A stretch of 64,000 nucleotides of DNA from Catajapyx aquilonaris (GCA_000934665.2 KZ538337.1:1-64000); one strand, 5' to 3'. Numbered from the stretch's first letter, positions 17,934 to 56,546 are shown. Made by a program: numbers and translations. Notes: generated from the letters alone by a model not told the origin.

Positions 17934-18898
17934 TTAGTATTGTCCAGTCATAGCTGCATAGAGAATCGGATACTCCATAGCATGAGCATACATATGATGT
18001 GTTAAGTCCTTTGTCGAGTGAAACTCTTTGCGACAGGTGTTACATGCGACCAGATTTTCCAGTGTATGAGCTAGAGCAATATTTTTGTGACGTTGCAACG
18101 AGCGTTTATTAGAAAACGATTTGTTGCAAGGGACACAAATGAAAACCTGCACATGATGCGTACGTGAGTGAAACTCCAACAATTGCTTGCAGGCGAAAGA
18201 CCTGTAGCATGTGGTACAGGTAAATCGCCTTACGGCATAATCTGCCCCTTTACCTGCCGGGTACACCCTGCGTCTAAACATCCCGTCGCACACATCGCAG
18301 GTAGAGGATGATACACCATCATCAGGGTGAGTCCCAATGTGACACATTAACTCACTGTCAGTCGGAAATGCCTTTGAGCACGTATGGCACTTGATTTGCT
18401 CTCTTTCGTTGTGCTGTATTTGCAAATGGCGTTTTAGAAAGTATATTGAGACAAATGACTTATCGCAAGAGGCACATGTGTACCCTCCCCGTGTACGGTT
18501 GTGATCAGCGCTACCCTCTTGTAGCATAGTTGAGTGAACAAAATCGTGGCTACATGTCTTCTTTTGTTTCTTCTTACCATATTCCCACAGCCTGTTCTTG
18601 ACGCGTACATCATCGGACGAATCTGCTTCAGCCAGTGAGCATCCTGAAGTTCCAGGTTGCTCGACATAATTGTCAGCTGGCGGCTGCTGGGCAGGAAGGC
18701 TGGCCTCCGAAGCCTCCACCTCCTCCACAAGCTCATCCAGTGCTCTCTCCATGTCCTCAGGAGGAAGGAATTCGTGGCACATCAACCCCAGGTATCCCTC
18801 GAGATTTCCATCCTCCTCTTCCGTGGCATCATCTTCTTCTGCCATCACCGTGGCCACCTCTTTCTCCTCTTCCTCTTCAAAGGCGATATAGTCTGAAT
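17934..18898 (-). CDS. C2H2 zinc-finger protein with acidic N-terminal region (terminal exon or single-exon CDS)
   Basis: Uninterrupted ORF with five complete fingers (e.g. CASCDKSFVSIYFLKRHLQIQH, CTTCYRSFACKQLLEFHSRTH, CNTCRKEFHSTKDLTHHMYAH) plus one lacking histidines; acceptor tttcag at 18899-18904; in-frame ATG at 18845 (MAEEDD). Confidence 0.8.
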
Positions 18899-21800
18899 CT
18901 GAAATCAATTGATAAATAAATAACACGGAATATTATTTACCTCGATAGCATTATCTCATCATTAAATATTATTAATAAAATAGCAAATCATGATGATCAC
19001 TTTGATAGTATGGTCTAAAGTGGTAAGTTCTGATTGCACTAAATATATACGTTTAATTGGTCAGAAAGGGTTACAGCTAGACTTACGCGTAGAGTAATGA
19101 ATGCCAAAGATTTTCATTACATTACCACCTGTGGGTGTTTAAAAAAGTGTGAATCTGACCCGTGTTTCCTGCGATAAGGCAAGAAGGAATTTACATTCGC
19201 TGTGGGGTAAACAATCCATAATTCTAATTCACCTATTCTGGAACTGAGGACTTGGACAGTGAACAACCCTGTACATATTTCACTTATGTACTTTCGACCA
19301 AGGAATCCATTGACCCGGCCAGAGGACAATTTGATTCTTACTGTAATAGTAGGCCTAATAAACGTATAATAATTTCAGTGCAGTTGTCCCAAACCTTATT
19401 CAGAGTCGGGACTGGAGTATAATAATTCAACTTCTCCGTACCCCTCTTCGAATAGTAAAGTCTGGCACTGTAACCCCCATGTATTTAAAAGTAATGCACG
19501 ATGAAAAAAGGGTGGTCTAAAAATGAGCCTATACGTCCGGAACCCAACTCATTGCTGTGTGTCCATATAGGATAGTGTATCATCGTTAGAGAATGTGTTG
19601 ATATAAGTGCTAACTTTTAGCAATGCAGACAGAGTTATTCATTGTTGGATTGTTCGTCGCAGTTGAGAATGAAGATTTCCTACTAATCACAGTCCACAGA
19701 CTGTGATTAAGTCACAAGCCTAGTCCTTCCTGAGAATCGAGTGACAACCGGATCTAGCTTGAACATTACGACGCCAAATTCAGAACAATAATTTCCTTTA
19801 GATAATACAACCGTGCACATGTCCACGTCCATAGTGTTGTCGGCAAGTACGGAAATAACCCAACACTCCAATAGTCCAATAGATACCAGTAACCAAAGGA
19901 TCATCCATTTGCTTGACTGCATCATTCTGTTGGGTTGTTTTCATACTTGCAGACAACACAGCGGACGTAGATCTGTGCAGTTAATTTTCTTATCAAAATG
20001 GATTCATTGCCCTGGACGCCAGTTGCGAAGTTCAAGCTGGATCGGATTGTCATATCCTTGAGCGAGGCTCAGGTTTCAGACACAGGAGGACGAGGCAGGG
20101 GTTCAATGTCCTTCAATCGCCATTCCGACGAGTGTGTACTACTTTGGAATTGAAAGGAATGTTGATGGCTTATGCCTTAGTGCTGTCCGACCTGTGCACA
20201 AACTGTCCGACAACAACCAACTTGAGTTCGGATTACCGAAGCACACCATCGACCTTATCTCTTGAGGTGTCATTACTCTGACTTACGTTAGAGCTTCATG
20301 CCCTTTCAACGCACAGCTGTGACTCGCAAAAGAGGTGACGTTTGAACTTCGGTCCTTAAAAGTGAGTAGTAAAAAATGTATTCATATGATTGTGTCCAGG
20401 ACAGTAACAACGAATAAGGAAAAAATGCCCCTTTTCACACGCGTTCTTCTAACACATGGTGACTTAGTCCACAGATCGTCACTCTACACATTTTGCATTT
20501 ATCTTAGCCCATAGACGCGGGTATTCTAGAGGTCGTACGAGTATGAAACACCGTGTAACTGCTTTTAACGACGTTCAGGATACCGAATTACTTGTCACAG
20601 TTGCACCTCAGTGCCGCGTCTTCATGCACACTATCAGCAGCATCCAACCAACCCGACGATTTTCTTAAATTCTTTGCGCACCTGTAACCGAACTACCTCC
20701 GAACCACCTACTACAGCACTCCCCATCCATCCCAGACTACCGAGGTGAATGAACCCCCGCCTCTGTGCAGAGAACAACTCACCCATTTCTTCGATCAAAT
20801 CTGCTGGAAAATCCGGAAACCCCTGCTGAATCCGAAGATCTTGGACTGAGGTCTCGTTGACGTCTCACAGCTTGGCTTGGACGCACTCGGGCGCACTGGC
20901 ATGGAGGTGAAGCCTTGATGGTGATGTCTTCTCGAACGAAGCGAGCCCAGAAGAAGAATGAGCCTGGGTCTCTCCTCACTGAAGCTCAACCCCTCTGGTG
21001 GAAGCGTGGCTGCGTTTGGGACGCACGTGACTGGGGAGGGGAGGGCTCGACTGTCATGGCGCGGCAGGGTGGGGATGGGGGAGTGGGGGCGGGATATGCC
21101 AATTTATTAAATCGCGGATTCCACATATTTATTTTGGTTTTAGTAAGCAAGGAAAATTGTATGATTTTTTAAAAATGTCACAATACTTGTGTGGTACTGC
21201 CTCATGGAAGATCACGTGTGACGTGTCTGTGGTCCTCTTTTCTCTTTTGTAGGGTGGCATATCCTTCCTGCAGAGGAGTGAATGAACTCGAGGTATTTGG
21301 TATTCCGGTTATTGTTTTTTTTTGCATGCTTCAATGTTGCCATTGAGAGAAATACATCTTACATAGCATGCAGTATTTTTTATCTTGTTTTTTTCCACTT
21401 AGGACGGGTTTACTGATGCCTGATTTTTGCGGAACACAAAATAATGTGAGCTAGGAGTTTTGCTTTATTCTGCAGATAAGAATGCCCAATAGAAATATGA
21501 GAGACTAACATCCTTTCAACTATGACTATTCGAATCTACCCAGCCGTATTGTATACTTTATTTATTTTAATTTCACACGCACTGGAAGGCACATAGATAG
21601 GTGAGGACAGTCATCGCCGGATTTCCCATTAGGCACATAGGCACTGGCCTAGGGGCGGCCGAGAGTTGCAATAAATATTTCTCAAATACAATAGTAGGAA
21701 ATAAAGGCGAGATCACAAAGAAAATAACATTTGAGCGCTTGATTTACCACTATACAGGCAGAAAAGGTAATTGCCGAAGGGAGGTCATAACTTACAGTAA

Positions 21801-25220: not shown

Positions 25221-26729
25221 GGGGAACCCGAAAAAGGAGGACTCGCGTCATAGAAGAGTTGTGAAAGACTTGAAACATGACGTTAATTTTTTCTCAGGAC
25301 TAACGTTAGCCAAAACAAGAACTTGTGTGGACCTGAATTTCTTCTTTTAACATTTAAATCAAGTGACACATCCAACGCTGTCATTTGTAGGAGAAAATAA
25401 TGCTCAAGTGCCAGAAGTCTGACATTTACCAATTCTGCAAAAAAGTCTTGAGCGAATATTCAATGAGATAGTGTACAATGTAGTTGCATTGATACATTGT
25501 CAGCCTCCTCGTAAATCCAGTACCTTTGACGAGTACAGTATTGTACAGTGAGACCCCAGCTGATAAGTGAAACCAGAAGATAAATTGGCATCAACAAAAT
25601 CAAATAGCAATAAAATAGGACAGTTTTAACAATGCAGTACTGTACTGTAGGAAAGTAAGTGTTAGATTTTCCTTTAATATTTTCAAATCACGTATAAGTG
25701 GGGGCTCACTGTACTGCGATGAAAAATATCTGCAGCGCAACAACTGAGACATAGGAGCAAGCCAAGGCCATTGGGGTGCATTATTTAGTCTGACAGTGAG
25801 ACCTTCGTTTTCCAAAATCTTTGAAAAATAAATAAAGTAAAATAGCAATTACGGCACCATGAATTCCCCCTGTCTGGTGTTGGAAGGTGTTATGTAATAA
25901 GTCGCCCAGTAATATTATACAGGCTTATGGAGCCAGATACACTGCACCGAGGAAACTGGACCCAGCCTAGGCACTTTCTGACAATAGGTAGACCTGTAGG
26001 TCAAGCACAGGTAGGCTACAAGATGACATACAATATTAATTACTCTAAATGGTCAAGTGTTTGAATTTTTAAATATGCACCATAACTTCTGTTTCAGCCC
26101 CTGTATAATAAAATAACTGCATAGTAAACAAATTATGACTGATTCTATATGCATGTACTACTCATTCAGAAAGTACTGATTCACTGGGAAATCATTATTT
26201 GATTTGTAACAGTCAATTTTCAATATTCACACATAGAAAGGTGAGTATAACATAAGCAATAGGCAAGATCTTCCACATACTGCTCCACTTCCACTTTATT
26301 GCCGGGCATTCCATAACCTCCACATGCCGCATATTTATACTTGTCAGTGGCTTCAACACTCAAACCTCCAATGGTCATTTTAATAATTTATTTTCCTGAA
26401 CACTTACCACATGACACGCACTTCTGGTCAAAAAACTGACAGCCCCTTTCATCGCACATGAAAATTCATTTCACAATTGGCAAAGATTAATAGAGTTGAC
26501 TAGTGATGTACTTGTGGCAGTGGCACAGTGACGAAAAACTGAACACATGTTGGTACATTCCTTCTATTGAGACTGGAAATGATTGAGGTCCTTCTTTCAC
26601 GGTAAACTGTTGTAAAGAGATTAAAAAACAACAAAAAAGCCTATTCAGCTCCCATGAAATCATGTTCAGCAGCATCACCCATATCTGCCATCACTCTTGG
26701 AATCAGCATTACTCATTCTTGGCGACGAG

Positions 26730-26822
26730 CTAACATTGAGGACAGCAGCCATCCTCAGTCAGCTGCGGGTCGTCGCATGTCACTTGAGGACAGCTGATGT
26801 GGCTGCATATCACTTGCCCATT
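26730..26822 (-). CDS. Pxn: Peroxidasin last exon (vWC end, TAG stop)
   Basis: AG acceptor; [30 protein letters not shown]. Confidence 0.9.
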   Translation of the reverse strand, partial: NGQVICSHISCPQVTCDDPQLTEDGCCPQC

Positions 26823-29800
26823 CTGTTAATAGAAAAAGACCATCCATTACTCGACTGAGGAATTACAAGAATGTGTCATGAATACAGACCTGGCAGACAC
26901 ATTGGACACATTTGTCTCGGTTCCATGTATCGCCATGTTTTCTGAACTGGCCTTGGAAGACACAGCTACGTGGTGAAGATAATCTTTTGTCACGCCCTGG
27001 CAAAGGCCCTGGATCTGATAAAGGGAGACCACAATGCTTCTCAAGGCGTCGCACTTTTCTTCGTAACTGTTTGATGGCTCGCTCAAATTTCTCCAGAACA
27101 TTCTCAATTCCTTCTATGCGCTCATCATTCAGGTCATCCAGCAAGAACTCTCGGTCCACCTGATTGTCCTCTGGAGACTTGTTGTGATTCACATGGAGAG
27201 ATATGGGCACTCGAAGTCCACCATGTATATGGCGACTTGGTGAGGTGTCTGTTGTGAAGGTTGAATTGTCAGCTTCTAACGTATTCAGTGACCAAAAGCG
27301 GTCCTCTGGATATGAGTGGTCAGAAGACCGCCGTATGCGATTCACAGACAGCCTTGTGTGGAAGTCATTTCGGCTACATCCTGCAATGCATGATGATTGA
27401 TAACTCACATCAGTATATCTAGTCCAGTCCATATTATTTTGTATTAGACCTACCTTGGCAGCACTCAGTCCAGAAGCGGAGGTCCATTTTTGGTATGTTT
27501 TGACATGACACAAATGCAGGGGACAGTTGTTGTGGAAGGACAAAAACATCATGGCTGATCTCCTGAATGTCATCACCATTGTCACACAGAATTCGTGACA
27601 GGGAGACTTGTTTAATCTGGGTCAGCTGTTCTGGCTTGAATACACCAGAGTTTTCATACCAAAAGCGATCACCATCACGAAGACGCCTGAACTGGTCCAC
27701 TAACAAACAACGAAACAGTGGACCTACTCTAGCACCATCCTCCACATCTTCTGCTATGCCTCCCACCCACACATCGATATTGCCTGTGTGATAACAAGCC
27801 AGAGAAAAAGTTAAACACTGAAACTATATCCAGTATACTGAAAAAAGAGCTTTCACTTACTTGGATGTCCATATAACTGTTGGAGCTTGTCGCGAACTTC
27901 TTGGCTCCGGATTTCAGTCCTCAAGTCATGGAAAGTGTGTGCTTCACTTAGATTGCAGAAACGGCGCCAATCATTATACCCTGGCAAGGCATGGTCCCGG
28001 CTTCGCTGGATATTAATTGCAGCTAGATCTAGGGCAACAACGTGAGCCATTTTGAAGAGCCTCTCAGTGAGTTCTGCATTTAAGAACTGATCTGGGCGTT
28101 TGACTTTTGCAGGGAGGGCAAAGAGGCCACGAAGTAAAGGGTCAACTCCACCCTCATCCACAAGTCGCCATGGAGAGAAAAATGCTTGATGCAGAGGAAG
28201 ATCTCCTTCAGGAATGCTCTGGAATGACCCATTTAGACGAGGCAGTACAGGGTTGATTAGTGTGTGGCCAAATCTTAATGCAGCTGTTGCAAATACATTG
28301 GCCACTCTGGGATCCACTCTAGGATCATATCCGCGGTACTCTCCCAGCTGCTTCATTCCTTCAGGTCCTAAGACATGTGGCAACCAGTGTGCGTAAGTTA
28401 TATGCTGCATCTCAGCTCCAACAATCTTTCGTGCTTCATGATACAGTGTATCACCATCCCATGATGGGTTGATAGAGCGAAGGTCCCATGCAATTCGGTT
28501 GTGTTCTCGGAACCACACTGTGTGCATTGCAAGAAGGCCCACCTGCTCATTAGAGCGAATGTCACCTGCGAGGAAACAACCTATTGCACTCTCACGGGGA
28601 TCACGACGACAGTCAACTGGATGGCCCTCACTAAAAGGCATTAATGGTTTTCCAGAAGGTGAAGTGGGGCCTTCTCGAAGCATTCCATATGAAGTTGCCA
28701 AGTCACGTAGTACATGGGCCTCTTCATCACTAGATCCATACACCTGCAAAATCACATCATTAGTCTCAAGCAATAGGTGTAATCAAGTATCATCTCACTT
28801 GTGAAGCATCGATAAATGCAGTCAGCTGGTTGATTTGCTCTCTAGGTTGCACTTTTTCAAAGAAGACTGAGGTGAATCCAGACCCACATATAGCACTGCT
28901 GCGAGTAAACTCCATACAGCGGTGACTTCTAATGCGGGGGTCATTAGCAGGAATCGGAATGGGGAAGCATGGTGCAGAGGAATCACAAGTTCGACTACAT
29001 TCTACTCCGGTGTCAAAAGTTTGCTTGCTAATGGAAGGAATGGCGTGATCTAGATCATGATCGAGAAACTGGCCCCACTGCATCAACATATGGGTGCAGT
29101 GTTCATCTGGGCTGACAACATCAGTAGTGACCAACTGAGATGACACTAATCTGGCGCTGGGTTTTGGAAACCCATTATACAAATGTGAAGGATTCCAGGC
29201 CACAGGGGTGTTAAGACCATTTTCATATATTGGATGCAATAATCTCTTGAATCCTGTTAGAGATGCACCCCACATGGGTGCTTGTAGATTATTACAAGTT
29301 CCATCCATACTTCGATATTTGGAATGAAAGCACATGTCACTGCAGTTGGTGTGTGTACGATGAGCCAGGCATCCAGAGACATTTGCCACCTGTTGAAGCT
29401 GAGTTGGGGAAAGCAGTTCCTGGTAGGAAAACCCAGACAAATTGAAATGCATTCCATCTTCCACATGTCGCTGAACTATTTGCAATGTTCGCTCATAAAT
29501 TTCAGCAGCCCGAGCAACTTCACGACCTATGGCATTTGGAAATCGGACAAGGCGTAAAAGGTCACTTGGAGAAGGATCCACCCTCTGACGATCTCTTTGA
29601 TACAGAGCTCGAACTGTCTCATTCAGAGCACGATCCACTGCTTGTCGAGCTTCTTCTAATGCAGCCTCTACAAATCGATCGCCTGGGCCATTACTGGCTT
29701 CATCTGCAAGATACATTGAGACAACATATAAAACATCACACCAAATTACAGATAATGTTTATGTCATTAACCTTTGAGAGTTATGTATCCTCTTGCAGTT

Positions 29801-32800
29801 GAGTACCCATATTCATTTTGAGCAGAACACTCATAGAGGCCTTCATCCCCACGATTAATTCGAAGAAAGAGTAATCCCTCAGGAGTAATACGTCGATTAT
29901 CACTGTCCACTAACGTTCGGCCATCTCTTTTCCATACCATTCTTGGGGCAGGAATTCCATCTGCCCTGCATCTCATCTCAACCCGACTGCCAATAATTGC
30001 TTCCATCTCTCCAGGTCGTTCTAAGAAACGTGGTGGAAGCCTCTCCTGTATGACAAGTTCAGCACTGGACTCTGCAAATCCCAGTGTGTTTCGAGCTTCA
30101 CATCGGTATGATCCGGCATCATCTCTCCTGGCATGATGTAACCTTAGGTGAGTCCCAGATGATGATATAGTCACACGGTTATCAGAAGACATAGGATGGC
30201 CATCTTTTGACCAGGACAAGAGTGGAGGAGGATTGCCTTCTGCTTCGCAATGGAAATCAGCTGGTTCATCTTCTCGCACCCGCTGCTCATGAGGTCGTTC
30301 AGTAAACTTAGGGACAGCTGGAAAAAAATTTAATGTGAGAAATTAATGCATCACATCTAGTTTGTTATGTAATATTCAGCCTTAGAACAGTAGTGATTAC
30401 CTAATGGGCAACAATGACTCAACAACATCATTAATCAATTAACTATCAATTATTAGTGGCTTCTGGCTTGTGACATCAGGTAGTCTACTATTCTTAGGCT
30501 GAATATATTATAAAACAGGTTAGAATCATCTACCACTTACCTAGAACCCTGATCTGTGCTAGGGCTGTAACCCGGCCTAAGTAGTTAGCAGCAGAACATC
30601 GATAAATTCCACCGTCACTCTCTTGAACTTGTGAGATTACCAAAGTGCCTGATTTACTTATCTGAAAGGTCAGTAACATATTACCATAATTATGAATGCC
30701 ACTAATGCCAAGACTGGAGCTAGAGCTTACTGTATGGCGTGCAGAAGGCGCTACTGGCAGGTCGTCTTTTGTCCAGGTGATGTCTGGATATGGTTGTCCT
30801 TTTGCCTCACAGTCAAGCTGCAGCTGCTCCCCAACAATTATGTCTCTATCTCCTGGAGTCAAAATGAATCTTGGCTTGGCTGTAGAAAGACACGAAGTTT
30901 TGAACTGGTTAGTCATTCATCCAGGTCAGTTCAGATACTGCCATGCACTCTACACATTATCCATCTTTTTTTAAAGGCATCTCTCACCCATTGCTTTATC
31001 TGAATCCCACCCTCTACTTAGATACATCATGCACTTGACAGAAGGTACCTAGGAAATTATCATAGGCAGGGCATGACAATTCTGTATCTTTCCAATTCTC
31101 ACCTCAGTCAGCTATCATGGTAGGCAATCTGGAGTATAGGTGGGATTCAGATAAGGCGGTAGGTGGGAGGTGCCTTTTAAGAAAGACGGACAACTTCAAA
31201 ATTCCTGGTTAGAAAACTAATGCAGAAAAAGTTCAATCATTTTTGGAAGCTGGATGAGACTGCAAACTAGGACGAACACGGAGAGAATCTCTTTACGCTC
31301 TTTCCAAATCCGAATGTGTCCCCTGTCATATCTGGGGTCCAGGGATCGAATGCGGGACCTCAGAGGTGGAAGGCTGTGAGACTGTGACATGAGTCACTAC
31401 ACGTTACACCCCTGTGTATTCATTTGGTTGATGAATGTTTTTATACATGCGGATCTGATGCAGAGGGGCCGAGACGCAGCCCATAGAAGCAACACACTGC
31501 TCTGAAGCTGGAAACATGCCACAAAACCGCGACTCGACACGAACAAGTAATATCTGGTAATATTATAATTACTGTATTAGTAAGATGGGGGAAGATGCCA
31601 CATATGGGGGAAGACGCCCCCAATTGTTCTCTTTCTCCATGTAACTTGAGATGTGACGAATCTCTCCTGATGCTAAGAGAGCCCTTCCTCTCTCCCACCC
31701 ATAACCATGAGATGGAGTCAGCAAGATCAACTAAACCGGCCCAAATATTGAACAATTGTGAAAACTCCCAGCACGTCATCTACGCTCGTAAGAGACAAAA
31801 CTCGGGGAAATTCCGATTTGCGGATTTCAAGGGCAAATATCTCGAAAATTGTTATTTCAAAACATCTCAAACTTTACCTTCAGTTTTCTCAAAAACAGGT
31901 TTTGGTGGGTTAGGGCGGTATTGCACCGAGCCCTTCAATTGTAGGTATGTATTAGTTACATAAAAGGAATGGTTTATGCACATGAATGCATATTTTTACG
32001 CATTTGAAATTATCAGCATAGCAGCCAGTTGCATGATCCTGAACAGGTTATTAATCTTGCTGAAGTCTTGCATGAATAACACGGGTCAACCACTTGTGAT
32101 GAAGTTACCACCGATCTTGTAACAAGCGATGCTTATTAAATACTGGTACCGGTTAAATACTATGGAAAAATCACCATGATCAAGTTTCACTTGCACTCTC
32201 ACCTTTACTGCTTTGGTAATTCATTTTGGCCGATCGCGACCTGACCTCCCCGACGGGGCTCTTGGCCATGCACTCGTAGACTCCAGCATCTCCGTCCTGC
32301 GCATCCTCGATCATCAGTGTTCCATCCTTCAGCACCGAATAGCGCGTCTCTTGCACCATGTTGATCTCGTTGCTGTAACATACGACATCTCAATCAGTTT
32401 GGAAGGCCGTCACAACACGGAGGTTTTTGCCAAGACGTTCCAACCTGCCTGCCTGAGTAATGGAAACGAGCCTGGAGTCGTGCAAGGAACGTCCGTCTTG
32501 GCCTAATTTGTAGCCCTGGAATGTCCACGCACTAAGACCAGTCCTTATGGGTTCATCTGGACCATTTATCACCGGATGGAAAATGGACTCTGAGACATTT
32601 GACGATCAAAATTGTTTCCAGGCTATTGCACGCGGCTCCTGACTCGTTTTCTCACTCAACAACAGGTGGTGCAGCAGTCGCTGCGTCACGGCTGACATGA
32701 CACATTTCGTCCCGTCACATGGGCCTGTCAGCACCCTGCATATGACGGAAGAGTGGAAGTGCAGCACTAACTATGGCCTTTGAAAAATTACAAAAATAAC

Positions 32801-35800
32801 ACTAGTCGAGTGTTGCTTCTCGGACGCTGGACCACCCTGTATATTCTGAAACCCGCCCAACGTCAAAACAGGCCGCTTGCACTTGATGGAGGAGTTGACA
32901 GGGCTCCTCACGCCCTCTCACTTCCCTTATTCTTACGCGCCACCTGCACCTCATGGGGTAAGAAAAAAGTCGAAGAGGAAAGGAGGGGTAGGAGAAAAAA
33001 AAGAAAAAAAAATCGTCCTTCCAGTTTCAGGGCACAGTGGAAAATTCAATGTTACAGTATCGCTAACAACGGGAGGGTCGCCTTAAATACGGTAAGCGCG
33101 AGAGAGCTCTCAACACTTTCACTCTCAGCTGGCTAAGCAAATTATCAGGTCGAGAAATTTTAGCAAATTTTTTTTTGAGGGGAATATTGCAAAGTTGTGG
33201 GCTTAAAATGATCATTTAGACAACAGGTATTCAATGACACTAAATTGTTGAAAATTTTGGAGTTAGCTATTTAACTCCGTACCGTATTCTTTACACAACC
33301 AGCCCATATCGTAGCGAATAATGAAGCTGAAGTTTTGTGACAGACACTTGAATTTTACTTCATTTTTTATGCAAGCAGTATTCCACATGTTTCCCATCGC
33401 TATGCTTAGGATCAGGATAATCCATAACAGAGTATAATTACAGTTTCCCACCAAAACCACAGGTTGTCGCAGTAATTCCACCGAACTTATCAGAGGGCAG
33501 CAATTTGGGGTAAAAATTATTGTCGTTATTAGCAGCCCATTAAGGATTTTTTTCCCCCAAGGTAGGGATTATTTGAAGGATAATTTTCGAGCTCGAACAA
33601 AAAGAATGGAGCGCATATAGGAAAGTAGAGGGGGAGGGGGGNNNNNNNNNNNNNNNNNNNNNNNNNNNNNNNNNNNNNNNNNNNNNNNNNNNNNNNNNNN
33701 NNNNNNNNNNNNNNNNNNNNNNNNNNNNNNNNNNNNNNNNNNNNNNNNNNNNNNNNNNNNNNNNNNNNNNNNNNNNNNNNNNNNNNNNNNNNNNCCCCCC
33801 CCCCCCCCCCCCACCTCGGAATGTTTCTCAAGATCCTGGGGGACGGATCTTTGGGCACACAATTCACAGGGCCCCCTGCTGGTGAATTTGACAGAAGAAC
33901 AAGCGAAACTCGGCGGGGATGGACAGGTGGAGGGAAGATGGCTGCCTGCCACTCTGATATGGCGTCTATCCTCTCACGCTTGGGTTGGAGGGGGAAAAAA
34001 AATCCCTCAATTTCTCCCCTACCTGGGTTTTAATTATACATTTTTAATGTTCTGGCCGTGACATTAAGTTACCGGTAACGGTCCTGACCGCGGAACCAAC
34101 TTGTGACTTCCCCTGCTGATTCCATCTATGAAGCGTTAGGGCGATTACATGCCTGTTGCGCGCAAGAGTGTTGATTTAATCAGAGGGTGGTAATCGCCAT
34201 TAGTTGCATCGACAGCTCTCGGCGGATTTGGCCGCGGATGAAATGTTTGTAGAATACCTGCAGTACGGAAGCGTTCAAATTCAGGGCAGCTAATTTGCGG
34301 CCTGTATAAATACAGGGTGTTTTGTAATGATTCGACAAACTTAGGTGAACAGCATGTTATGAGCAGATAAAGGTGTCGTCTGGCCTGGGAAGCATCGTTA
34401 ATACCATCAATTGGGGTGAGATTGTGCCAGGTGGGGTGAGATTGTGCCAGCGTAATTTTTGGACAACAGTGCGCCCTACCACTAATTTTACTCGTCATTG
34501 CCAACCTTGACCATACCTCAATGTAGTAAAACATGCCTAAATTTGCTTGCTGCCAGTATAGGGTGCACCGTTGTCCAAAAATGTGGCGGCACAAATCTCA
34601 CTCCACCTGGCACAATCAAATGATCCTCTGATATTCAGGAGTTGGTCCGAAACTTGGCTGCATCCTTACAGAACACCCTGTAGAGGCGCCAGCTTTGTGC
34701 ACCACATCCTGTAATGTGTTTCGTGAACTTCGAAAAGACAAGCCTGTTAGCCGGGCCTACCACCCAATCTGGACGAAAGTCAGTAGGCGTCCTAACGAGC
34801 GAAATGGACTCGCCACCGCAGATGGCAAAAGCTGATAGTGGCCATAAATCACTCGACAAAGGAACATATACTGCAAGTTACTCGCCTGTTTCTCAGCCAG
34901 TAGATGTCCGGCATGGGGTCCCCTTCGGCCTTGCAGGTGAAGTACACCGTACCTCCGAAGCTCACCTCAACGTCTCTAGGCTCCTCGGTAATTTGAGGCT
35001 TTCCTGCAAGACAAAAACCACTTGTTAATCGCACAGGTCCCGAAGAATAGTCGTCACGAGGATGAACATGAGCGTAGTAAAAGTCAATGGTGATTTACAG
35101 CCATTTTTCACCCCAGGATCTCCCCTTTTTCTTTTGGGGGGGGGGGGGGNGTCCGTAAAGTATCGCGGAGGTGATTCGTTTCCGTAGGGTCCAGACATGC
35201 TCCGACTAGTCAAGCGCAGGTCCACCGTAACAATGAGTCCGCAACAATGATTAGGATATAAATTCCAGACTTATTTGACTGCTTTTATGAGTCATTTCCC
35301 AAACGACAATTCCGCCCATTACAATAATGGATGGAGGGAGACCTTTTACGACTCAGCTTTTGGGCATCCAAGCCTGACAGAGTTGCTCGGGGACCAGTAA
35401 ACCCAAACAAAAACAGTCTCCCCAGCTACAAATATCGTGTTTGTATGTCCCTGCTGCTAACACTAATGTACCGCAGAAGTGCCACAAACACGCTTTGCCA
35501 AGATGTGGCTCGTTTCGGTCCCATTTGGATGCACGCTAGGAGTGCATCCCAGCTCTGTTTGCACCTAGTTTTGTTTGTGCCGCCTAGTCCAACAGACGGG
35601 ATTTCAATGCAGGGCGAGAAAAGGCTCATCATGATATTGACCAACAAAGCCCTTCATTTCACCATGCGTGTAGAGTGCAGTACCCAGCTTGAAAAATGTT
35701 ACCATTGACCGATCTGTCATGTATCAGCGAATAGGACGTTGAAGTTGAGACCATTGATTCCTATTGGTTGTTGTCGGTTACTGCGCAAATATCTTATGCG

Positions 35801-38800
35801 TCCTCTGTAGATGTAAGAGCTACTCACGACAGTGGAATTCGTTGTCGTCCAGTGCTGCCAGAGGACGTCCCTGTAGTGAGGCTGGTGCTTGACACGTGGC
35901 TGCAGCTTGTGTCGCCCCCTGTTTCTCCTTCAGCATGTGTGCCAGCCACATCATCTCGCAGTCGCAAACCAATGCATTGCTGTCCAACCGCCTACATTTG
36001 GTCATACATTGTATATTAGTACGGATTCAGCAACACACTACATCTACCCCAACCACAAGCAGAAATGAGTGTCAAATCCCGATGGGTCATGCAGCATGCA
36101 TCTGAAAAACCTTGGTTGCATCTGTGGGGTCGGATAGAATCCAACTATATAATCTGGGACGGGGTGGGGGGTACCAAAAAGTACTTACAAACGACGCAAC
36201 GACTCCATATTTTTAAAGGCTCCACTTGGAATCCTGCTGAGCTTATTGTTGTGTAGGAATCTGAAACGGAAACCATCACAAATGTTTGGGTGCAATTCCA
36301 GATGGAAAGGGGCATTGACTTTCCATAAATCAGGGGCTCAGGTAACGAAAAAATATATATATCTATCAGAGTGGAAGGCTGGGTCACAACTATCTTCTTG
36401 GGCGGCAAAATGATTGGTGGGATTTCCTCGGGGGCCAGAAACGAGCACAAAAAAAATTCTCGATAACATCACTACGATGAGCCCTAATAATATTGTGCCT
36501 AAAGTCATTACCAAATCCTATTTTAAGTGAAATGGGAGTTATCCATTTACTGTTAGCTAATTGAATATTTAAAAATGCTTCAATCTCGCAATAACTGTTG
36601 AGTGGCATACTTGTAGAGATGGAATACTAACATTCTAGGTAAATGAATTCAACATTCGACATTACTACTGTAAATGAGTTTTATATGGTATGAGAAAGGA
36701 GAATGCTAACTAGTAAGCTGCATAATTATAGAACATTCAATATGTTCAGAAAACGCATCATTACACAGCAATATAAAACTTTATGAGATATAATTCAGCA
36801 ATTTGGCAAAAATTAATGCAGCGCCCAGCTAAAGTTAGATATTAAATGTAACACCGAACATGACAGTATAAAACGTACTCAGTCAATTACGAAGTAATGT
36901 AGATAATCATAAACCTTAATGTACAAAATCCTGCACTTTAAGAACAGGAAAGGGGCCATGAAGAGTGCTTTTCTACAGACGAGGTCCATCATCGTCACAT
37001 TAAAAAATCCGAATCTAAATCCTAATTAATACTAGATCACCATGGCTCGGTATGAATGTGTACCTTCAACCATATAAATTTAAGGAGCTTCCACTCTCAA
37101 AATGGAGCACAATATTTCAGATCCGCTTTAGCGCTGGTAAAAAAGAAAATCATAAAAGTTAGATAGAGCATTTTTTGACCTATCTGGGTTCTGCACGTAG
37201 CCCTCAATTTCCGTCGGTGTTCCGGCAACATGATCGTCGGTCGACGTAAATCTCCGTAATTGGTCCCGAGGAAACACTTTGGAAGGTATTCCCGATTTTT
37301 TTTCGTCATTCGCTTTTTCTTCCACTTTTTTTTTCTAGAGAAAATTGGAGCCCTTAAAATATGGCTTCCGATCTGGAACAAACTAGGAGCTAACCTGAAC
37401 AGGTAGTAATCTAGAGCAGTTAGCCGAAAAACGGTCCAACCACTCCCTTTGTTATACGAACAGCCGGCAACTAATGCCCAAACTACACACTTGGACCTTC
37501 CCACGTCAAAAATGAGCACATACGCCCAAGATAATTGGCCCGTTCTGCGACACACCATCTGTGCCCTCACCAGGATTCGAACCTGGGACCTCCAGCTTAT
37601 AAGCCGTTGCTCTTCCAGCTGAGCTATGAGAACAGGTGTTGATATGCCGCAACGTTATATAAAAAAAATAGTTATTTTCCACTCCTGTTTCAACATTTGT
37701 GAAGCAGGATTGTAGGGGTCCAGAAGCCCCCGGAATCGCAGACATTTTGGGAAACATGATGAGGCACAAGAGAGATCGTGGAGCCCCGCACTCATCACTC
37801 ATTCGAGTCGACGTTTCCCATTAACACCCTGCCGAAGCACAGCATTGCCAGAAAGAAATGAACTCATTTATATCCGGTGCACTATCAGGTGTCATCTTCA
37901 CTTGTCTGCTCTCCAAGAAACACGGTGATATTAGAGGTAGGCAAAGAGAGATGAAAGCATATGTGTTTCAACTTGGGCTTTGGAAGGTTAAAAAAAAAGA
38001 TAAGCGCTATTTTCATCTCATCAGAGTTGATGACGTGGCTATTTACCGTGCTCGTTCGAAGGCGAATTGCTGTGGCAGTAGATACGCGTTTCCGTGCGAT
38101 GTCATCTGGACCACAGCGGAGCACCTGTCATCAACTCACAGGAGGCTAAAATAGCTGTTATTTCTTGTCCGCTCTTGAGACGAGATTCAACGCCGTAGAA
38201 GACTGAGGGCCTGTTCAAGTCCCGAAAGTAATTTGTTTCCTTCACTCGCAGATGCCTATACAACGTATCTTTCAGTATTTTATGCTGAGACTGCGCAGTT
38301 ATATGTGGAGCGTACTTCAGTACAGAGAGTGAAACGTACCAAATTCTGGATCCAGCAACTTGTTCATTTTAAAAGTAGATTTCCGCCCAAGGACTTGAAT
38401 TAAAACATTCACCGTATAATCTGTGTCATTACACATTACGCAGATTGTGAGGATGCCTTTTATGAGTGACGGAAAAGCTTGTCTGTCTTTGTGACCAAAA
38501 AAAAGCTATAATGGCATTTAAAAGAGCAGGTAGGGATATTAAAACGCGATCGTTTAATACCCTTGTTGAGTTAATACTATTAATATCACTGGCTACATAA
38601 TGTAACGTGAGTGAGATACTCCGCATTTAAAACACTGGAATCATCTTATTATACTGACAGGATCAAACTGAATGCGCAACTTCTCCAATCTGGCCATATT
38701 ATAAGAAGCATAACTCAAGTTTCTAGTAGTGCCAGCAAAAATCTATTTAAAAAATTGTGGAGAAAAATGCGGGGGGGTGCACCGGACGACTGTTGTGTCC

Positions 38801-41800
38801 CGCTAAAGCCCAAAACAAACAAAAATGCATGTAAGCAAGCTCATTTTGACACTCCGGGAGCCAATTACATAGACTCTTTTAAAATACTACCCATGAACAA
38901 AGCGTTGCTCCCAGTGACCAGCAGTTTTGATCTCAGGTCCCACTATACCTGCCGAATATCAAGCGCACTTCCAATACTTGTTGATTAAACCACCTGACTC
39001 TTTCGTAGCGATCATCAAATCTCGGTAATTAACTTGAGCAAAGATAAAAGACATGTTAGTTCGCTTTGCAGAACCCATGACGTTAATTCATGCAGCGTTT
39101 TCCATCCGATAAAACCTTCCGTCACGATGAATTTCACACCTCCGAAAGACATTCGAGCCTACTCGTCGGATTTAACTTTATTAAAATCTCAGACACTGCT
39201 TTCAAAAGATAGAGACGCAAGTAGAGGGGGGGGGATGGGTGGGAAGGAGGGAGGTTCAACCTTTCAAGGAAAGTCAATGCTCTTCTCATCATACTGTGCA
39301 AGTCTCTTCATCACACTATCACGACTCTTTAGTCATGCACGTTTTTTATCCCCTAACTCATGCCTCTATGCCTGATGTGCACTCTACTTAAGGACAGTAA
39401 TGAAACACCTTGCTCCCATTTTGATACTGCAATAGAACCACATGCTGGCAGATGAATCCCAGACATTCAAGTAGAAACGAAAAATATAGCCAATCAAACC
39501 AAATTGCACGTGCTAAAAAAAAATAGGTGGCATTGCATGTGACTACTGTACATACCAAGAAATGGTGCTCACCATAATTATCCCAAACTACATGGATATA
39601 CATAATATAAATCAACCCCATGCTGCCACATGACAAGATTTGGAATTCGGAGTATAATTTTTGGTATACTCTTTACTCACAATCGTTCGAGATGACGCAA
39701 ATTGCTAAAAACGGCAGGGCCTAACTTTTCAATCTCGTTGAAATGAAGGTACCTGAAATAGGTCAAGGCGATGTCATTGAGAGGCAGGGATACGAATTAC
39801 TTACAAGCGCTCTACGGAGGGCAAGTTAGAAAACGTTTCTGGTAAGAACTCCTCGAGACTGTTAAAGTGCAGGTACCTGCAAAGAAAAATCCATAAGTCA
39901 TCTGGGTGTAAAAATTAGGTTCAAACATTACAACACGATGTCCGGGAGGTCAAGTTGGCTTACCTCCCAGATTCTGAAACATACAAAATTCTCATTAAAT
40001 TACACGGGTTGTGCAAGTACTGGAAATAAAACCATTCATTTTGAAGTCAAATGAAAAAAAAAAGGATGTCATCATGCCTGGAAGCCATTTTTCCAAATTA
40101 GGAAATAGGAAAGGTTCGTGATTAAGGCTTCCGAACTCGTCCCACTATTATTATTTTTTACACTCGATGTAATTATATGTACATGTTATTTTCTGTTCCT
40201 TGTCACGTGCAAGAGACAAGTCATTCATTTCTAGGCCTCAAATCCTACTCAGCCTTGATTATAGACTGGGAGATACATACAGAGGGTTGATTAAGAAAAT
40301 TTATGGTCTTGTATAGAATGACCAGCTGTCAAATTCCAGTTCAGCCTGATCTTGTCAGTGTGCAGTTTATATCTCCATAAGTGAGACAAATAACGCCTTG
40401 TAATATTTATTGCCTGCAGTCACAATATCTGGCAGATTTGGTGGAGAGAGTGGAGGGAGAGAAAAAAAAATCGACCCACGTATAAAAACCTATAGCCAGG
40501 GGAGATATCCCCAAATGTGGCAATCCGGACGTAAATTTGCATTTTACCTCATTAAGATTTCAGGTGCATGTAACAGATACTAGGCTGCACTTGATTAGAG
40601 AATCAGTAGTGGCTCATTCATTTATATTCCGGTTGCTATTTGTCAATGTTTTCCGCTCGAGTGGGCGAAATGTGAAAAATAAACAAGTGAGTAGTCCTCA
40701 GAATCTATGGTATTACGTATTTTTTATCTTCTATTAAAATAATGTAGTTTGACAATAGAAACACAATTATTATACAGGGTCATCCAAAATACTTGTCAGA
40801 TTTCTGTTGCGATTTTTACGCACTAAACTACTTATTTTCAGAAGTTATTTTGAAATGGTTACTTTTACTGGTTATCAAAAATATTGTCTGCTAATCAGTA
40901 ACGGGTTGTGTTGATCCATCCTATGTAACACCTGCAAGGGGGTCTAGCCTGGGCAAAATGGGTTCTATTATTGACGTTTGATCCCAATCATATATTCATT
41001 GTACCGTAATTTTGAGCTTGGATAGGTTATTTAATTCGTTCTAATATTCCCAGCTTTGATAGCTAATAAAAGTAACTGCTTAATATTAAACAGTTCAGTG
41101 CAAAATATCGCAACGGCAATCAGACAAGTATTTTGTATCACCTTGTAAGAACATAATATTCATATCATTTTTATTAATTATTATTTTTAAGAGGTGAAAT
41201 GAGAGCATTATCTGAAATAATTGCCCACAATATCTGAAATGCAGAACGGACATTCCCAAGAGTGGAATGACTAAAACTGATGCGTACTACCACTTACATG
41301 ACACCCATCTGTTAAAAAGTATAGTTTTAAAAATAAATATAATGTGCGTAGACGAAATATTTGGAAGTCGCTGAGCCCTCTGCTGTTAAATTAAATAACA
41401 AATTAATTTATGCATACAAGCAGCAGTTTTCAAATTGAGGTTATTAGCACCCCTAAGGGTACGGGCAAGACAGTAATATCATGTTAAAAATGTTATTTTC
41501 ATTAATAATTTTTAACACTTTGAGGAGTAGCCTCTTCATGGAAGAGGTCCAAGAAATTTCCACCGATACGGATGCCATCTCGCTTGTCAGTTCTGATACA
41601 CACGGAATGAAATAAATTGAATGGACAATATTGACAATATTTTGCACTCTGCTTCTTGAGGGCATGTAGGATATACACGTATTTTGTACTCGACATAACC
41701 GTTAGGTGGGTAGCCAATAAAGAGCCGGAGAGATTATTTAAAAACTGCTGCTTAAAATAAGCTGGAGCTACTGCTAATATATCTAACGCACATGTGCGAT

Positions 41801-44800
41801 CAGAAGCCTTACACTTGACATAATGATGTCATATAACCAGTTCTCTTGAACATTATTGTTGTGATAGGCTGCCGAAAAGTGAACCATTTCTTTGAGTCCA
41901 AGTAATAACTAGAGACCGGGTTTTTAGGTAAATATGCTGTTTGATGTTCCACTGATTACGATGAAGAAACCAATATAATCCATCCGTTTAATAAGTTCTG
42001 GACCCAAATGATCCAGGTTTTATGGGCCCCCAAAATACTTACATCGGGGATTTCGATCTTATTTTGCCTTTTCTCACTTTTGGACTTAATCAGATATTTT
42101 CGGGCTTTTTCGGGGGGGGGNNNNNNNNNNNNNNNNNNNNNNNNNNNNNNNNNNNNNNNNNNNNNNNNNNNNNNNNNNNNNNNNNNNNNNNNNNNNNNNN
42201 NNNNNNNNNNNNNNNNNNNNNNNNNNNNNNNNNNNNNNNNNNNNNNNNNNNGGGATTAGCCATCACCCATGAAAAAACAATTACTTGTTATATAATTTGT
42301 AAGAAGACCTCATCCAGTACGTCTGTAGAATCTACAGACCGTGTTAGTCAGGACGGTATTTTAAAAGACATTTACGGTACAACATTTCGTGATATTTAGA
42401 GCCTAAAAGCCCGGTCAATAGTAATAACTAACTACATAATGTAGTTTACTACATGGTATTGAAAGCATGCACTGTTACAGTAAAGAATCACCTACGTAAG
42501 ATGTGTATGGTGATGGGACACATTTCAGAGCCCCTATCTATTATAATATTGTACGAACATCGTCGTCAGAAGCACACGATGTAAAATAATAATTAGCACA
42601 CAATTTTTTTTAAAAAAAAGAACAGAATTTTACTTACAGCTGCTCCAGTTTTCCAAGTCCTTGAAAGACCTTACTTTCAATCTCACGAATTCGATTTTTG
42701 TAGAGATACCTGCAAAATAACGAGAATGAGCCCAGTGTTGTGAAACATAATATTATGAACGATTTTTTATTTTATTTTATTTTTTGCATAAAAGGAGCGG
42801 AGCGGTAATAAATATTTAAACCCTGAGTACGGGGGTATTCAACTTGAAGGCAATCCAGAGAGAGAATTTCCATCAGCTGATTAGATTTGACTATGCACGG
42901 CTCATTTCGATCTAATACTAGCACATCTGTGTAGAGCGGATGGGAAGTCTATTCGAAAAGAAAGGCTAAATTCTCTCTAACTCCACAGAATGCTTTTAAT
43001 CTCCCCTTTTTAATCTCCTCAAGAGCATATAACACTGGTCAACATCCACAAATTTTGAATAATCATATTGTGCTGAATAAATGAGAGTTAAATGCATAAT
43101 TTAGTTTCAACGCAACATATAGTGTTTCCTAATAGATATTTAAAATATAATTGAAAATTAAGTAAATTATGTCAATATTTTTCTTAGTCATTTTTACATT
43201 ACATGTAGTAACAGTAATTGATAAACTCGGTTTTTTAAAAAAAGGTTAAAATTCGTTGCCCAGTGTAATTTATAGCTCACGACCTGTGTTTCCTGGTTGT
43301 CTCCTAATACGACGCTTCAAGTCCGGATTTTTAATCTCTTCGTCATGTAGATTTTGTCGCGAAAACACACCCAACTTTCTGACACTTGTTCCTGCCCTGC
43401 TGCGGTGCTTGCGAAATGAGTTGTGGAGCACTTTCGGCTAAAGGTCGCATAATCAACCACGTCGTTTTGTTCAGAGGGGCAAAATTTAGGAACGTCGCAG
43501 CGTATCGGGTCATTCACCTAAGGGAGAAAAAAATATTGTCCTTTCTGACATGGTAATTCATGTCCTGACTTTGAGACAGGAATTCATTACATCTGATTCC
43601 ATTTTGGAGTAGACATGACGCAAATTTCCTCCGTATCCGCGATTTATAAAATATTAAAATTATAATACTAAAATGAAATATTAAATCGAAATAATAAAAT
43701 TAAACAATCCATTTGTATTACTGTACAGTACTGTATTGTTACGACTATTTTATTTTATTAATTATTTTTGATGTATTAATGTGCAGACTGTAATTATTTA
43801 AAAATAGTACCATTCGAATCTCTATATGCTTTTTTTTTAAATTTCATTTATTTAAGACAGTATTTCCGACTGCTAAGTTAGGATCCGAGACATTCCCGTC
43901 TTCCAAGACGGAACATGAATATTGAATTACAACATTGTTTTTGAGGTCGCTTCCAACATCACTCATCGCTCATTACTCCTCATGATTAACTACGCGCTCA
44001 GCTCGATAAATTGCCCGTTTTGCATCGTGATATTTTACTTCGCAGGTCTGGGCTCGCGTTTTTGTTTATTCAACCCATGCCTTTTCGCGTGGTGTGTGAT
44101 GTGTGTGCGTGTGCTGCGGGGGAGTGATATATACACTCATTAGTTAAACTCCTCACGTGTTTTGCAAATAAGATGCGGGACTCAGGAGAGAGAGAGAAAA
44201 AAAAACCCTGTGAAATTCGGATGTGCCAATTGTTTTATCACCCCCCTCATCCCTATAATGTCTTATTCGGACTAAAAATGCCTGCCTAAATGGGGGATAT
44301 ACCCTGTGTAATTGCACAATTTGGCGCGGAAATGACGGCTGGGGTAGAGTGTTATTAAAAATCTCCTCCACCTTCTTTCTCAGGCAAGGGTTATTAGGTG
44401 CGCACGTTTTCCATCACAGCCTATGGCCAAATAAGGACGGACATACGGCAACTGATTACGAATGACACGCAGCCTACTTTCCTTTTTATTGTTATTTTTT
44501 TTTACTGATGTCTTAGCTCCACAACACTGCAAAACAAGCTGTTTGCTCTGTATTTCAGTAGGTCATTATCAACTCTCATTTTTTAAAAGTGATAATTACT
44601 CCAAATTCAAATTTAGATATCACCTGTTCACCTGTAGGGTATTCAGTTGCCGTTGCATCTTGTCACCAACCGCGAGGTCTTTTCCTGCCCATTGGCACAT
44701 AAGAGACACTAGCTCGTACTGATCGATTTTCTACCCTCGATGTTCTCCCGGGTGAATAAGCCAATCACCCAACTGAATTCAAATTGTTGGCCCCGCCTGA

Positions 44801-45342
44801 GCCCACCCTATCAGGTGATTGACTGTGATTCAAGCAGCCTGTGCACTACCACCTGCGATTGGTTCATTCAGACGGATTCATCCCTTTTACGTTCAGTGCA
44901 GTTATTGTTGACTCAACAAGTAACAGTATCATGATTACTCGTTACATGAATTTTACGGGGTGTGCCTCTGCCCAGGTTGACATAGCCAGGGGTGACTCAT
45001 CGATCAACTCATCCTCCCGCCTGCTCTCTGCGGATTGTCAACTTGGGAAGAGAAACACTCGATAGAATGACAATGTGAAAGTGTACTCACAGGTAGCGAA
45101 GTTCTCGCAGTCCATTGAACACACCATTCTTCAACTTGGTCAGGTGATTGTTGTTCAGCAACCTGCGTGACGGGAAGTTCAAAGTGACGAGTCCATGACC
45201 ACATTTTACGGGAATCGTGCGACACAATTTAAGTGTGTCACAATTATTTATGAACCACCATATTACTTACAATGTGTTGAGATTCTTCAAGTCTTTGAAG
45301 CTGTTAGCTGGGATGTCCCGAATCTTGTTGAATCGGAGGTCA
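26730..45342 (-). CDS. Pxn: Peroxidasin (multi-exon; 5' exon(s) not found in window)
   Basis: 17 phase-compatible exons (4402 nt if both duplicated LRR exons are used): LRRs, LRRCT, 4 Ig, peroxidase with QWGQFLDHD (distal His), LTAFIDAS (Ca loop), GDIRSNEQ (distal Arg/Glu), LRFGH (proximal His), then coiled coil and vWC. Confidence 0.97.
26890..27380 (-). CDS. Pxn: Peroxidasin exon (linker, coiled coil, vWC start)
   Basis: [58 protein letters not shown]; phase 1 to 0. Confidence 0.9.
27454..27783 (-). CDS. Pxn: Peroxidasin exon (peroxidase C-terminus)
   Basis: [33 protein letters not shown]; phase 1 to 1. Confidence 0.95.
27861..28743 (-). CDS. Pxn: Peroxidasin exon (peroxidase core)
   Basis: [52 protein letters not shown]. 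Confidence 0.95.
28799..29703 (-). CDS. Pxn: Peroxidasin exon (peroxidase N-terminal part)
   Basis: [51 protein letters not shown]. Confidence 0.95.
29772..30317 (-). CDS. Pxn: Peroxidasin exon (Ig3-Ig4)
   Basis: [48 protein letters not shown]; phase 1 to 1. Confidence 0.95.
30541..30661 (-). CDS. Pxn: Peroxidasin exon (Ig2 second half)
   Basis: [29 protein letters not shown]; tttcag acceptor, gtaagt donor. Confidence 0.9.
30731..30879 (-). CDS. Pxn: Peroxidasin exon (Ig2 first half)
   Basis: [31 protein letters not shown]; cag acceptor, gtaag donor. Confidence 0.9.
30957..31193. mobile_element. Degenerate palindromic MITE in a peroxidasin intron
   Basis: TTAAAGGCATCTCTCACC..TTATCTGAATCCCACC vs GGTGGGATTCAGATAA..GGTGGGAGGTGCCTTTTAA. 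Confidence 0.6.
31270..31410 (-). mobile_element. tRNA-headed SINE fragment (same family as 45470-45624)
   Basis: Minus strand CACAGCCTTCCACCTCTGAGGTCCCGCATTCGATCC is nearly identical to the head of the 45.5-kb copy. Confidence 0.65.
32203..32372 (-). CDS. Pxn: Peroxidasin exon (Ig1 second half)
   Basis: [43 protein letters not shown]; cag/gtgag; phase 2 to 1. Confidence 0.92.
34313..34680. mobile_element. Tc1/mariner-type MITE
   Basis: TA-CAGGGTGTTTTGTAATGAT / ATCCTTACAGAACACCCTG-TA; internal GGGGTGAGATTGTGCCAG repeats. Confidence 0.75.
34886..35003 (-). CDS. Pxn: Peroxidasin exon (Ig1 first half), GC donor
   Basis: [38 protein letters not shown]; donor AG|GCGAGT gives the required phase 2. 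Confidence 0.88.
35828..35991 (-). CDS. Pxn: Peroxidasin exon (LRRCT)
   Basis: [29 protein letters not shown]; tag/gtgag. Confidence 0.92.
36189..36260 (-). CDS. Pxn: Peroxidasin LRR exon (72 nt)
   Basis: [24 protein letters not shown]; cag/gtaagt; phase 2-2. Confidence 0.92.
37562..37633 (-). mobile_element. tRNA-like SINE head or tRNA pseudogene
   Basis: GTTCTCATAGCTCAGCTGGAAGAGC..CCAGGTTCGAATCCTGGTGAGGGCA: acceptor, D and T arms pair, but the anticodon arm is defective (6-nt loop TTATAA) and there is no immediate poly-T. Confidence 0.65.
39681..39752 (-). CDS. Pxn: Peroxidasin LRR4 exon, copy B (72 nt)
   Basis: [24 protein letters not shown]; tttcag/gtgagt; phase 2-2. Confidence 0.88.
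39805..39876 (-). CDS. Pxn: Peroxidasin LRR4 exon, copy A (72 nt)
   Basis: [24 protein letters not shown]; tttgcag/gtaagt; phase 2-2. Confidence 0.88.
40775..41145. mobile_element. Tc1/mariner-type MITE
   Basis: TA-CAGGGTCATCCAAAATACTTGTC.GATT..GTTGCGAT / ATCGCAAC..AATC.GACAAGTATTTTGTATCACCTTG-TA. Confidence 0.7.
42638..42709 (-). CDS. Pxn: Peroxidasin LRR exon (72 nt)
   Basis: [24 protein letters not shown]; tttgcag/gtaagt. Confidence 0.92.
45091..45162 (-). CDS. Pxn: Peroxidasin LRR exon (72 nt)
   Basis: [24 protein letters not shown]; cag/gtgagt. Confidence 0.92.
45271..45342 (-). CDS. Pxn: Peroxidasin first LRR exon (72 nt)
   Basis: [24 protein letters not shown]; tttgcag/gtaagt. Confidence 0.92.
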
Positions 45343-45469
45343 CTGCAAATATAGAAAAAAATAAATTGTTAGAATCATCACATTAATGGTCGTTAGAGTG
45401 TTATTTTAACTGCTTGGTTTTATTTTAATAATCAACCGTCTTTATTCGTTGCCTGTCTTGTGAATTGTG

Positions 45470-45624
45470 ATGGATTTTGATTGTGGGAGGAAACGAGAGA
45501 ACCCACGCAAACACGGGAGAGAATCCATCGAAACATTTCCACATAAGTATCCTCTGTCCGACCCGGAGATCGAACTCGGGACCTCATAGGTGGAAGGCTG
45601 TGGCGATAAGCACTACATCACCCG
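45470..45624 (-). mobile_element. tRNA-headed SINE with V-domain-like core
   Basis: Degenerate A box TGATGTAGTG, B box GAGTTCGATC, then TTCTCTCCCGTGTTTGCGTGGGTT..GTTTCCTCCCACA. Confidence 0.7.
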
Positions 45625-56473: not shown

Positions 56474-56546
56474 CGACCCAGCCAGGATTTGAACCTGGAA
56501 TCTTCTGATCCGTAGTCAGACGCGTTATCCGTTGCGCCACTGGGCC
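56474..56546 (-). tRNA. tRNA-Arg-ACG: tRNA-Arg, anticodon ACG
   Basis: 73-nt GGCCCAGTGGCGCAACGGATAACGCGTCTGACTACGGATCAGAAGATTCCAGGTTCAAATCCTGGCTGGGTCG; full cloverleaf, close to the metazoan Arg-ACG sequence; followed by a TTTTTT Pol III terminator. Confidence 0.95.

Follow-up and report, generated by a model that had tools for sequence, protein, structure and literature searches.

Tandem A- and B-type LRR4 exons in the peroxidasin gene of Catajapyx aquilonaris: candidates for substitution-type alternative splicing

Peroxidasin makes the sulfilimine cross-links of collagen IV. Here we report that the peroxidasin gene of Catajapyx aquilonaris contains two tandem duplicates of its fourth LRR exon, which we call A and B, and that both copies are conserved. 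Judging from the resemblance of each copy to its counterparts in other species, the duplication arose before malacostracan crustaceans and insects separated. Comparison of sequences leads us to favour, with moderate confidence, substitution-type alternative use of A and B as the best reading of the pair.

The gene lies on the minus strand of the window, that is, the whole stretch of 64,000 nucleotides that was analysed. An earlier note on this DNA had identified it as a peroxidasin, an identification upheld both by its layout, obtained by tblastn with three homologues, and by the Pfam domains LRRCT, I-set and An_peroxidase. The same note had placed the end of LRR3 at 42638 and the start of LRR5 at 36260, where we also find them. 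The features of the gene are as follows:

45271-45342, minus strand, LRR1 exon (72 nt; alignment to homologues)
45091-45162, minus strand, LRR2 exon (72 nt; alignment to homologues)
42638-42709, minus strand, LRR3 exon of the YLYKN type, upstream partner of A or B (72 nt; AG acceptor, GTAAGT donor)
39805-39876, minus strand, exon A, the A-type LRR4 exon (72 nt, phase 2-2)
39753-39804, minus strand, intron between A and B (52 nt, GTAAGT to TTTCAG)
39681-39752, minus strand, exon B, the B-type LRR4 exon (72 nt, phase 2-2)
36189-36260, minus strand, LRR5 exon of the FLHNN type, downstream partner of A or B (72 nt)
35827-35991, minus strand, LRRCT exon (Pfam LRRCT E 1.2e-5, above the cut-off; splice sites read)
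26733-35002, minus strand, rest of the gene, with Ig I-set, animal haem peroxidase and VWC end (tblastn, Pfam, RNA contigs)
29719-27440, minus strand, three peroxidase exons (tblastn)

The I-set profile matched with an E value of 1.9e-40, and An_peroxidase was covered from profile position 1 to 530 over three exons (E 2.6e-52, 6.9e-103 and 6.4e-32). The last exon scored below the cut-off for VWC (E 5.7e-4, 20.6 bits against a required 27.6) and is aligned by tblastn to the C-termini of the homologues, while an exon for LRRNT and the signal peptide was not found within the window. Compared with the peroxidasins of insects and decapods, about 708 residues are 66-68% identical, and the best matches (the 120 best of 998 were considered) are decapod and polyneopteran peroxidasins, with 63-67% identity over one exon. 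In a FastTree phylogeny of the peroxidase domain, built from 46 chosen homologues and the Catajapyx gene, the latter falls inside Pancrustacea with a local support of 0.93 and outside the sampled winged insects, adjoining Malacostraca with a support of just 0.54. We read this as the position of a pancrustacean lineage that is absent from among the matches. The second Ig exon (30545-30877, minus strand) has an open frame about 22 residues longer than in the homologues, which suggests a further, very short intron within it.

All six LRR exons are 72 nt long, share one phase and have canonical sites, so that any combination of them remains in frame. Besides the 52-nt intron between A and B, the mapped introns measure 55, 67, 68, 73, 77, 108, 824, 2381, 2761 and 3420 nt. 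RNA contigs of one public run (X1) were placed on 26700-45600, with none over LRR3, A, B or LRR5; they are spliced RNA of Catajapyx, since they match without mismatches and leave out introns bordered by CT..AC, which on the gene strand reads GT..AG. These contigs confirm the introns of 67, 73, 77, 68 and 824 nt and include a joint from 35827 to 35002. For the 55-nt intron (28744-28798) the RNA joint has 21 letters on its shorter side, where the bar of the tool is 31, and this intron is also required by the reading frame and by the alignment to homologues. It has a CTAAT branch 39 nt from the donor, and all three lines, the RNA joint being the weak one, agree with the earlier statement that it appears to be spliced.

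Exons A and B are equal-length, equal-phase homologous neighbours, each with its own splice sites. Exon A follows a pyrimidine-rich stretch ending in GCAG and is followed by GTAAGT, and exon B lies between TTTCAG and GTGAGT; all four sites are GT-AG, canonical and of the same quality as those flanking the constitutive LRR exons. Each exon is open in frame and opens with the base that completes a Leu codon split by the intron (phase 2). The likeness between the two exceeds the general likeness among LRRs: A and B are identical at 14 of 24 residues and 39 of 72 nt, whereas in the remaining 14 pairings of the six LRR exons identity ranges from 6 to 10 residues and from 24 to 38 nt. Since different codons are used at 9 of the 14 residues common to both (Ser, for example, is TCT in one and AGC in the other), the likeness of the proteins has been maintained while the DNA has drifted to background. 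When coordinates and sites were re-read, the earlier description of two 72-nt, phase 2-2 exons with strong splice sites, 14 of 24 identical residues and differing codons for conserved residues held throughout. The two differ at unit positions 6, 7, 9, 10, 11, 13, 14, 19, 20 and 21. We rejected the possibility that either copy is a decaying pseudo-exon, as A and B keep an open frame, splice sites and 67-83% identity to counterparts from distant orders. No third LRR4-like copy turned up when the minus strand was scanned for the motif between 30000 and 64000.

The age of the duplication was judged from an identity matrix and from the typing of LRR4 units. Protein models of a termite (P0012), a thrips (P0067) and a caridean shrimp (P0214) contain A and B units in tandem. 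Catajapyx A is identical to the A units of termite, shrimp and thrips at 17, 16 and 14 of 24 residues, respectively, and Catajapyx B to the B units at 19, 18 and 13; it also shares 83% of residues with the single unit of Gryllus (P0007). In the matrix of the four species, A-A comparisons give 14-17 and B-B comparisons 12-19 identical residues of 24, as against 9-15 for A-B comparisons, and 9-14 for the two units within one species. As the counterparts in other species are closer (up to 17 and 19 of 24) than the neighbour in the same gene (14 of 24), the two types predate the malacostracan/insect split. The claim that the duplication is old and that both copies are under constraint was therefore borne out, by the tandem units of termite, thrips and shrimp and by this closeness of counterparts.

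For the typing, a unit parser was applied to 83 of the 282 retrieved proteins, namely named arthropods, 18 further records and 5 non-arthropod outgroups, most vertebrates being left out. Seven proteins would not parse; among the remaining 76, we found one A-type unit in 30, one B-type unit in 15, one unassignable unit in 25, both types in 3 and no unit in 3. Unassignable single units occur in all 9 named chelicerates, in Daphnia and in 4 of the 5 non-arthropod outgroup rows, the unit of chelicerate and deuterostome proteins being of intermediate type, and a single ancestral LRR4 unit would fit these chelicerate and outgroup units. Two centipedes lean to B, and a crinoid weakly to A. The single LRR4 unit that the earlier note ascribed to human PXDN agrees with the vertebrate PXDN and PXDNL proteins among the matches, each of which has one unit.

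A metagenome scan returned 13 loci; its search pattern was taken from exon A, so that a B exon on another contig would be undetectable. Five loci are termite-like, host-derived contigs with exon A only (92-96% identical to termite A); in the 307-2389 nt that each of them covers beyond this exon, no frame resembling B was found. The other eight come from other animals: seven have LRR3 and one LRR4 unit, three of them also LRR5, and the eighth (L008) has a weaker LRR4 match. In these contigs (L006-L013) LRR3, the single LRR4 and, where reached, LRR5 are separate 72-nt exons with AG/GT borders, which makes the layout of one repeat per exon much older than the A/B duplication.

How the two exons are used can be approached by asking what the proteins of other species contain. 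Among the homologous and transcript-derived proteins, the majority carry five LRRs, the fourth being of type A or B, which makes this the common product. The earlier note had put forward a survey of arthropod Pxn genes for the pair; among the 76 parsed homologues, A and B occur together in 3, one of them without LRR3, a single assignable A or B unit in 45 and no LRR4 unit in 3, counts that refer mostly to gene models. Close relatives differ in the type they carry. Two baetid mayflies with near-identical other LRRs have A in one case (Neocloeon, isoform X1) and B in the other (Cloeon); of the stick insects, Timema shows type A, Bacillus isoform X7 type B; cockroaches have A, and Gryllus has B. 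In decapods, A is found in Cherax, Panulirus, Portunus and two transcript-length Logan proteins, and A together with B in Halocaridina, a shrimp model which shows that the B exon exists in decapods. The proposal of two isoforms made with either A or B gains indirect comparative support from the five-LRR proteins and from the differences between relatives. The proteins compared are mostly computer gene models and not sequenced mRNAs, and the pattern of A in one species and B in its relative could also stem from differential exon loss or from arbitrary choices of gene predictors.

A different possibility, already named in the earlier note, which we hold to be unlikely though worth serious attention, is that the pair constitutes a permanent extra repeat, with both exons always included, the 52-nt intron always removed and six LRRs in every product. 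In its favour, both exons have canonical splice sites that equal those of the constitutive LRR exons in quality, double inclusion is in frame, the 3' half of the gene typically has introns of 55-77 nt, and the six-LRR form could be modelled with pLDDT above 93. The A-to-B models of three species, together with this confident fold, make constitutive double inclusion viable. What speaks against it is the prevalence of a single A or B unit (45 of 76 parsed homologues, against 3 with both) and the presence of one LRR4 unit in each of the transcript-length Logan proteins. Moreover, two long-kept, diverged exon copies are the usual signature of substitution-type exons. Human tandem-exon sets are of this kind (PMC9741552, PMC8373072): old duplicates of equal length and equal phase likewise swap a homologous stretch of protein.

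Variants of these exons are already visible in RefSeq isoform models. In the termite Zootermopsis nevadensis, isoform X8 (P0010) reads 1-2-A-5, isoform X6 (P0011) 1-2-3-5 and isoform X5 (P0012) 1-2-A-B-5, and the three differ solely in the LRR units they hold. Zootermopsis resembles Catajapyx in that the protein is of the same family, has the same six types of LRR unit and carries A- and B-type LRR4 in tandem; it differs in belonging to another arthropod order and in that its isoforms are pipeline predictions. The unit content of X8 and X6 means that LRR3 or both copies of LRR4 can be dropped in the termite models, and the pattern of these models looks like free use of cassettes and not like a one-of-two rule. 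Taken further, this would mean that LRR3, A and B are each included or omitted without coupling, giving from three to six LRRs. We regard such independence as very improbable for Catajapyx, even though six exons of 72 nt in the same phase keep every combination in frame, a Daphnia model lacks LRR1 and LRR2, and exon-per-repeat splicing of LRRs is described for human NLRP3 (PMC6642158): the termite isoforms are pipeline models, and most proteins of other species have exactly five LRRs. In NLRP3, each LRR likewise occupies one exon of constant phase and repeats are added or dropped with the solenoid intact; NLRP3, however, skips a repeat, whereas A and B of peroxidasin are two diverged versions of one repeat.

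If A and B substitute for each other, as we favour, the question arises of what could enforce the choice. Many tandem-exon pairs are kept exclusive by a frame shift followed by mRNA decay, which is impossible for A and B because both are 72 nt long. As to a clash between U2 and U12 sites, all four sites of the pair are GT-AG, which leaves a steric block or regulation. Exons 2 and 3 of alpha-tropomyosin in mammals are an example of steric mutual exclusion, and the same device could in principle operate here, if a 52-nt intron were below the smallest size that can be removed, so that A would never be joined to B. We consider this strict form improbable. In its favour, the spacer is, as the earlier note had stated, the shortest intron mapped in the gene, the next being 55 nt, and frame-shift decay cannot police exons whose length is a multiple of three. 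The candidate branch sites, read by eye, are also tightly spaced: TGAC, with its A at position 31, is 31 nt from the donor, and TTGAC, with its A at position 42, is 10 nt from the acceptor. In addition, five C. elegans clusters of exons with lengths divisible by three, including let-2, rely on introns of 14-34 nt, too short to excise (PMC4165533).

The steric limit, however, depends on the species, being a total intron length of about 40 nt in C. elegans (PMC4165533), while in human it is set by the distance between donor and branch point, at less than 50 nt (PMC5740500). Within the Catajapyx gene, an intron just 3 nt longer than the spacer appears to be removed, on the evidence of frame, homology and a short RNA joint, and as its branch is 39 nt from the donor, the 52-nt spacer is better described as marginal than as clearly forbidden. 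Nor is the tight spacing a conserved trait, given that no B-like frame lies downstream of A in the five termite-like contigs, where 307-2389 nt were covered, against a spacer of 52 nt in Catajapyx. A-to-B models exist in other species, and a steric block would not prevent the skipping of both exons. The earlier suggestion that a very short spacer is the hallmark, or the enforcer, of exclusive splicing in this pair is accordingly weakened by the termite-like contigs, the three A-to-B models and the 55-nt intron. Should the 52-nt intron be retained, a TAA stop follows directly after exon A.

A close parallel is known from C. elegans. Like A and B, exons 9 and 10 of let-2, which encodes collagen IV alpha-2, belong to a basement-membrane gene and are homologous neighbours with lengths divisible by three and a very short intron between them (PMC4165533). 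In the C. elegans clusters, the introns of 14-34 nt fall clearly short of the species minimum, which is about 40 nt, and exclusivity was shown by RT-PCR (same source), whereas the Catajapyx spacer is at, and not clearly below, the smallest other intron (55 nt), and the pair is known from sequence alone. As for competing RNA pairing, the predicted fold of 39600-39960 was no better than that of shuffled sequences (z -0.65). Of 16 inverted repeats found in 36189-42709, one flanks the exon pair (39589-39618 with 40284-40313); being 30 nt long, 70% complementary and AT-rich, it was taken as due to chance.

The consequences of an exchange for the protein were considered on an AlphaFold2 model of the shrimp fragment P0214, which spans LRR3-A-B-LRR5-LRRCT-Ig and was built from an alignment of 42 sequences. 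Residues 1-240 have pLDDT values of 93-98. Strands were modelled at residues 23-27, 47-51 and 71-73, and as these positions straddle the unit borders, each concave strand would consist of two residues from the end of one exon and three from the start of the following one. The strand residues are identical in Catajapyx A and B, and none of the 10 positions at which the exons differ falls in a modelled strand; exchanging A for B should therefore spare the concave face and alter the loop and the convex side. Of the earlier idea of alternative LRR4 surfaces, what stands is that the surfaces differ; the concave beta-strand is the same in both forms, with the differing residues off the strand. Included together, A and B should add one turn, and the six-LRR form is, as modelled, structurally unproblematic.

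We propose that the Catajapyx pre-mRNA usually keeps one of A and B, which would yield five-LRR enzymes that have all other residues in common. The two forms would share the concave beta-strand of LRR4 and differ at the 10 positions in the loop and on the convex side. Because the LRR domain of human peroxidasin is reported to bind laminin (review PMC10657184, citing Sevcnikar 2020), the docking of the collagen-IV cross-linking enzyme in basement membranes would differ between these forms, in its manner or its place; that the A and B forms differ in function at all is on our part an inference. The choice would probably be made by regulators acting on two competing exons, with the marginal 52-nt intron possibly helping through its poor removal. 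There is probably no absolute block on double inclusion, since the forms with both exons or neither are in frame and the six-LRR form folds well in the model. A bolder version, to which we give little credence, would have A and B as a true one-of-two switch older than the crustacean/insect split, in which the convex-side surfaces of LRR4 direct the enzyme to different matrix partners or tissues and the spacer has shrunk to the limit of splicing in this lineage.

Within the literature accessible to the search, which included term look-ups in the full text of PMC3303723 and PMC3923563, no published description of the A/B pair was found. The pair is apparently an undescribed example of a known splicing device, and no new principle. 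If an alternative pair has been kept across shrimps and insects, arthropods would make at least two docking variants of peroxidasin, and the A and B variants would offer a handle on the role of the LRR domain in vivo. They would also add a case of duplicated exons that, having lengths divisible by three, are beyond policing by frame shift, in which the mechanism of choice, if one copy is indeed chosen, can be tested.

Several other features of the window were recorded. A tRNA-like element with an abnormal two-base anticodon (ARAGORN) lies in the intron between B and LRR5 (37561-37633, minus strand); contigs of run X1 touch it and continue to either side into sequence unrelated to it, with loose ends at 37565 and 37597, and its appearance is that of a repeat derived from a tRNA, not of a functional tRNA gene. 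At 56474-56546 (minus strand) there is either a gene for tRNA-Arg (ACG) or an element derived from a tRNA. Runs of 131-153 N mark assembly gaps at 6127-6266, 33642-33794 and 42121-42251, the last of which sits in the intron between LRR3 and A. The gap flanks are G-rich or C-rich, with six-frame translations giving Gly runs on one side and Pro runs on the other, and are probably an artefact of scaffolding or sequencing. Broken remnants of a mariner/Tc1-like transposase occur at 9571-10040 (minus strand), where the match to Transposase_1 (E 1.5e-4) is just under the cut-off. Downstream of peroxidasin and on the same strand are two long open frames (14664-15440 and 17937-18932, minus strand), one of which contains kelch repeats (Kelch_1 E 4.2e-32), while the other encodes a C2H2 zinc-finger protein with an acidic N-terminal part.
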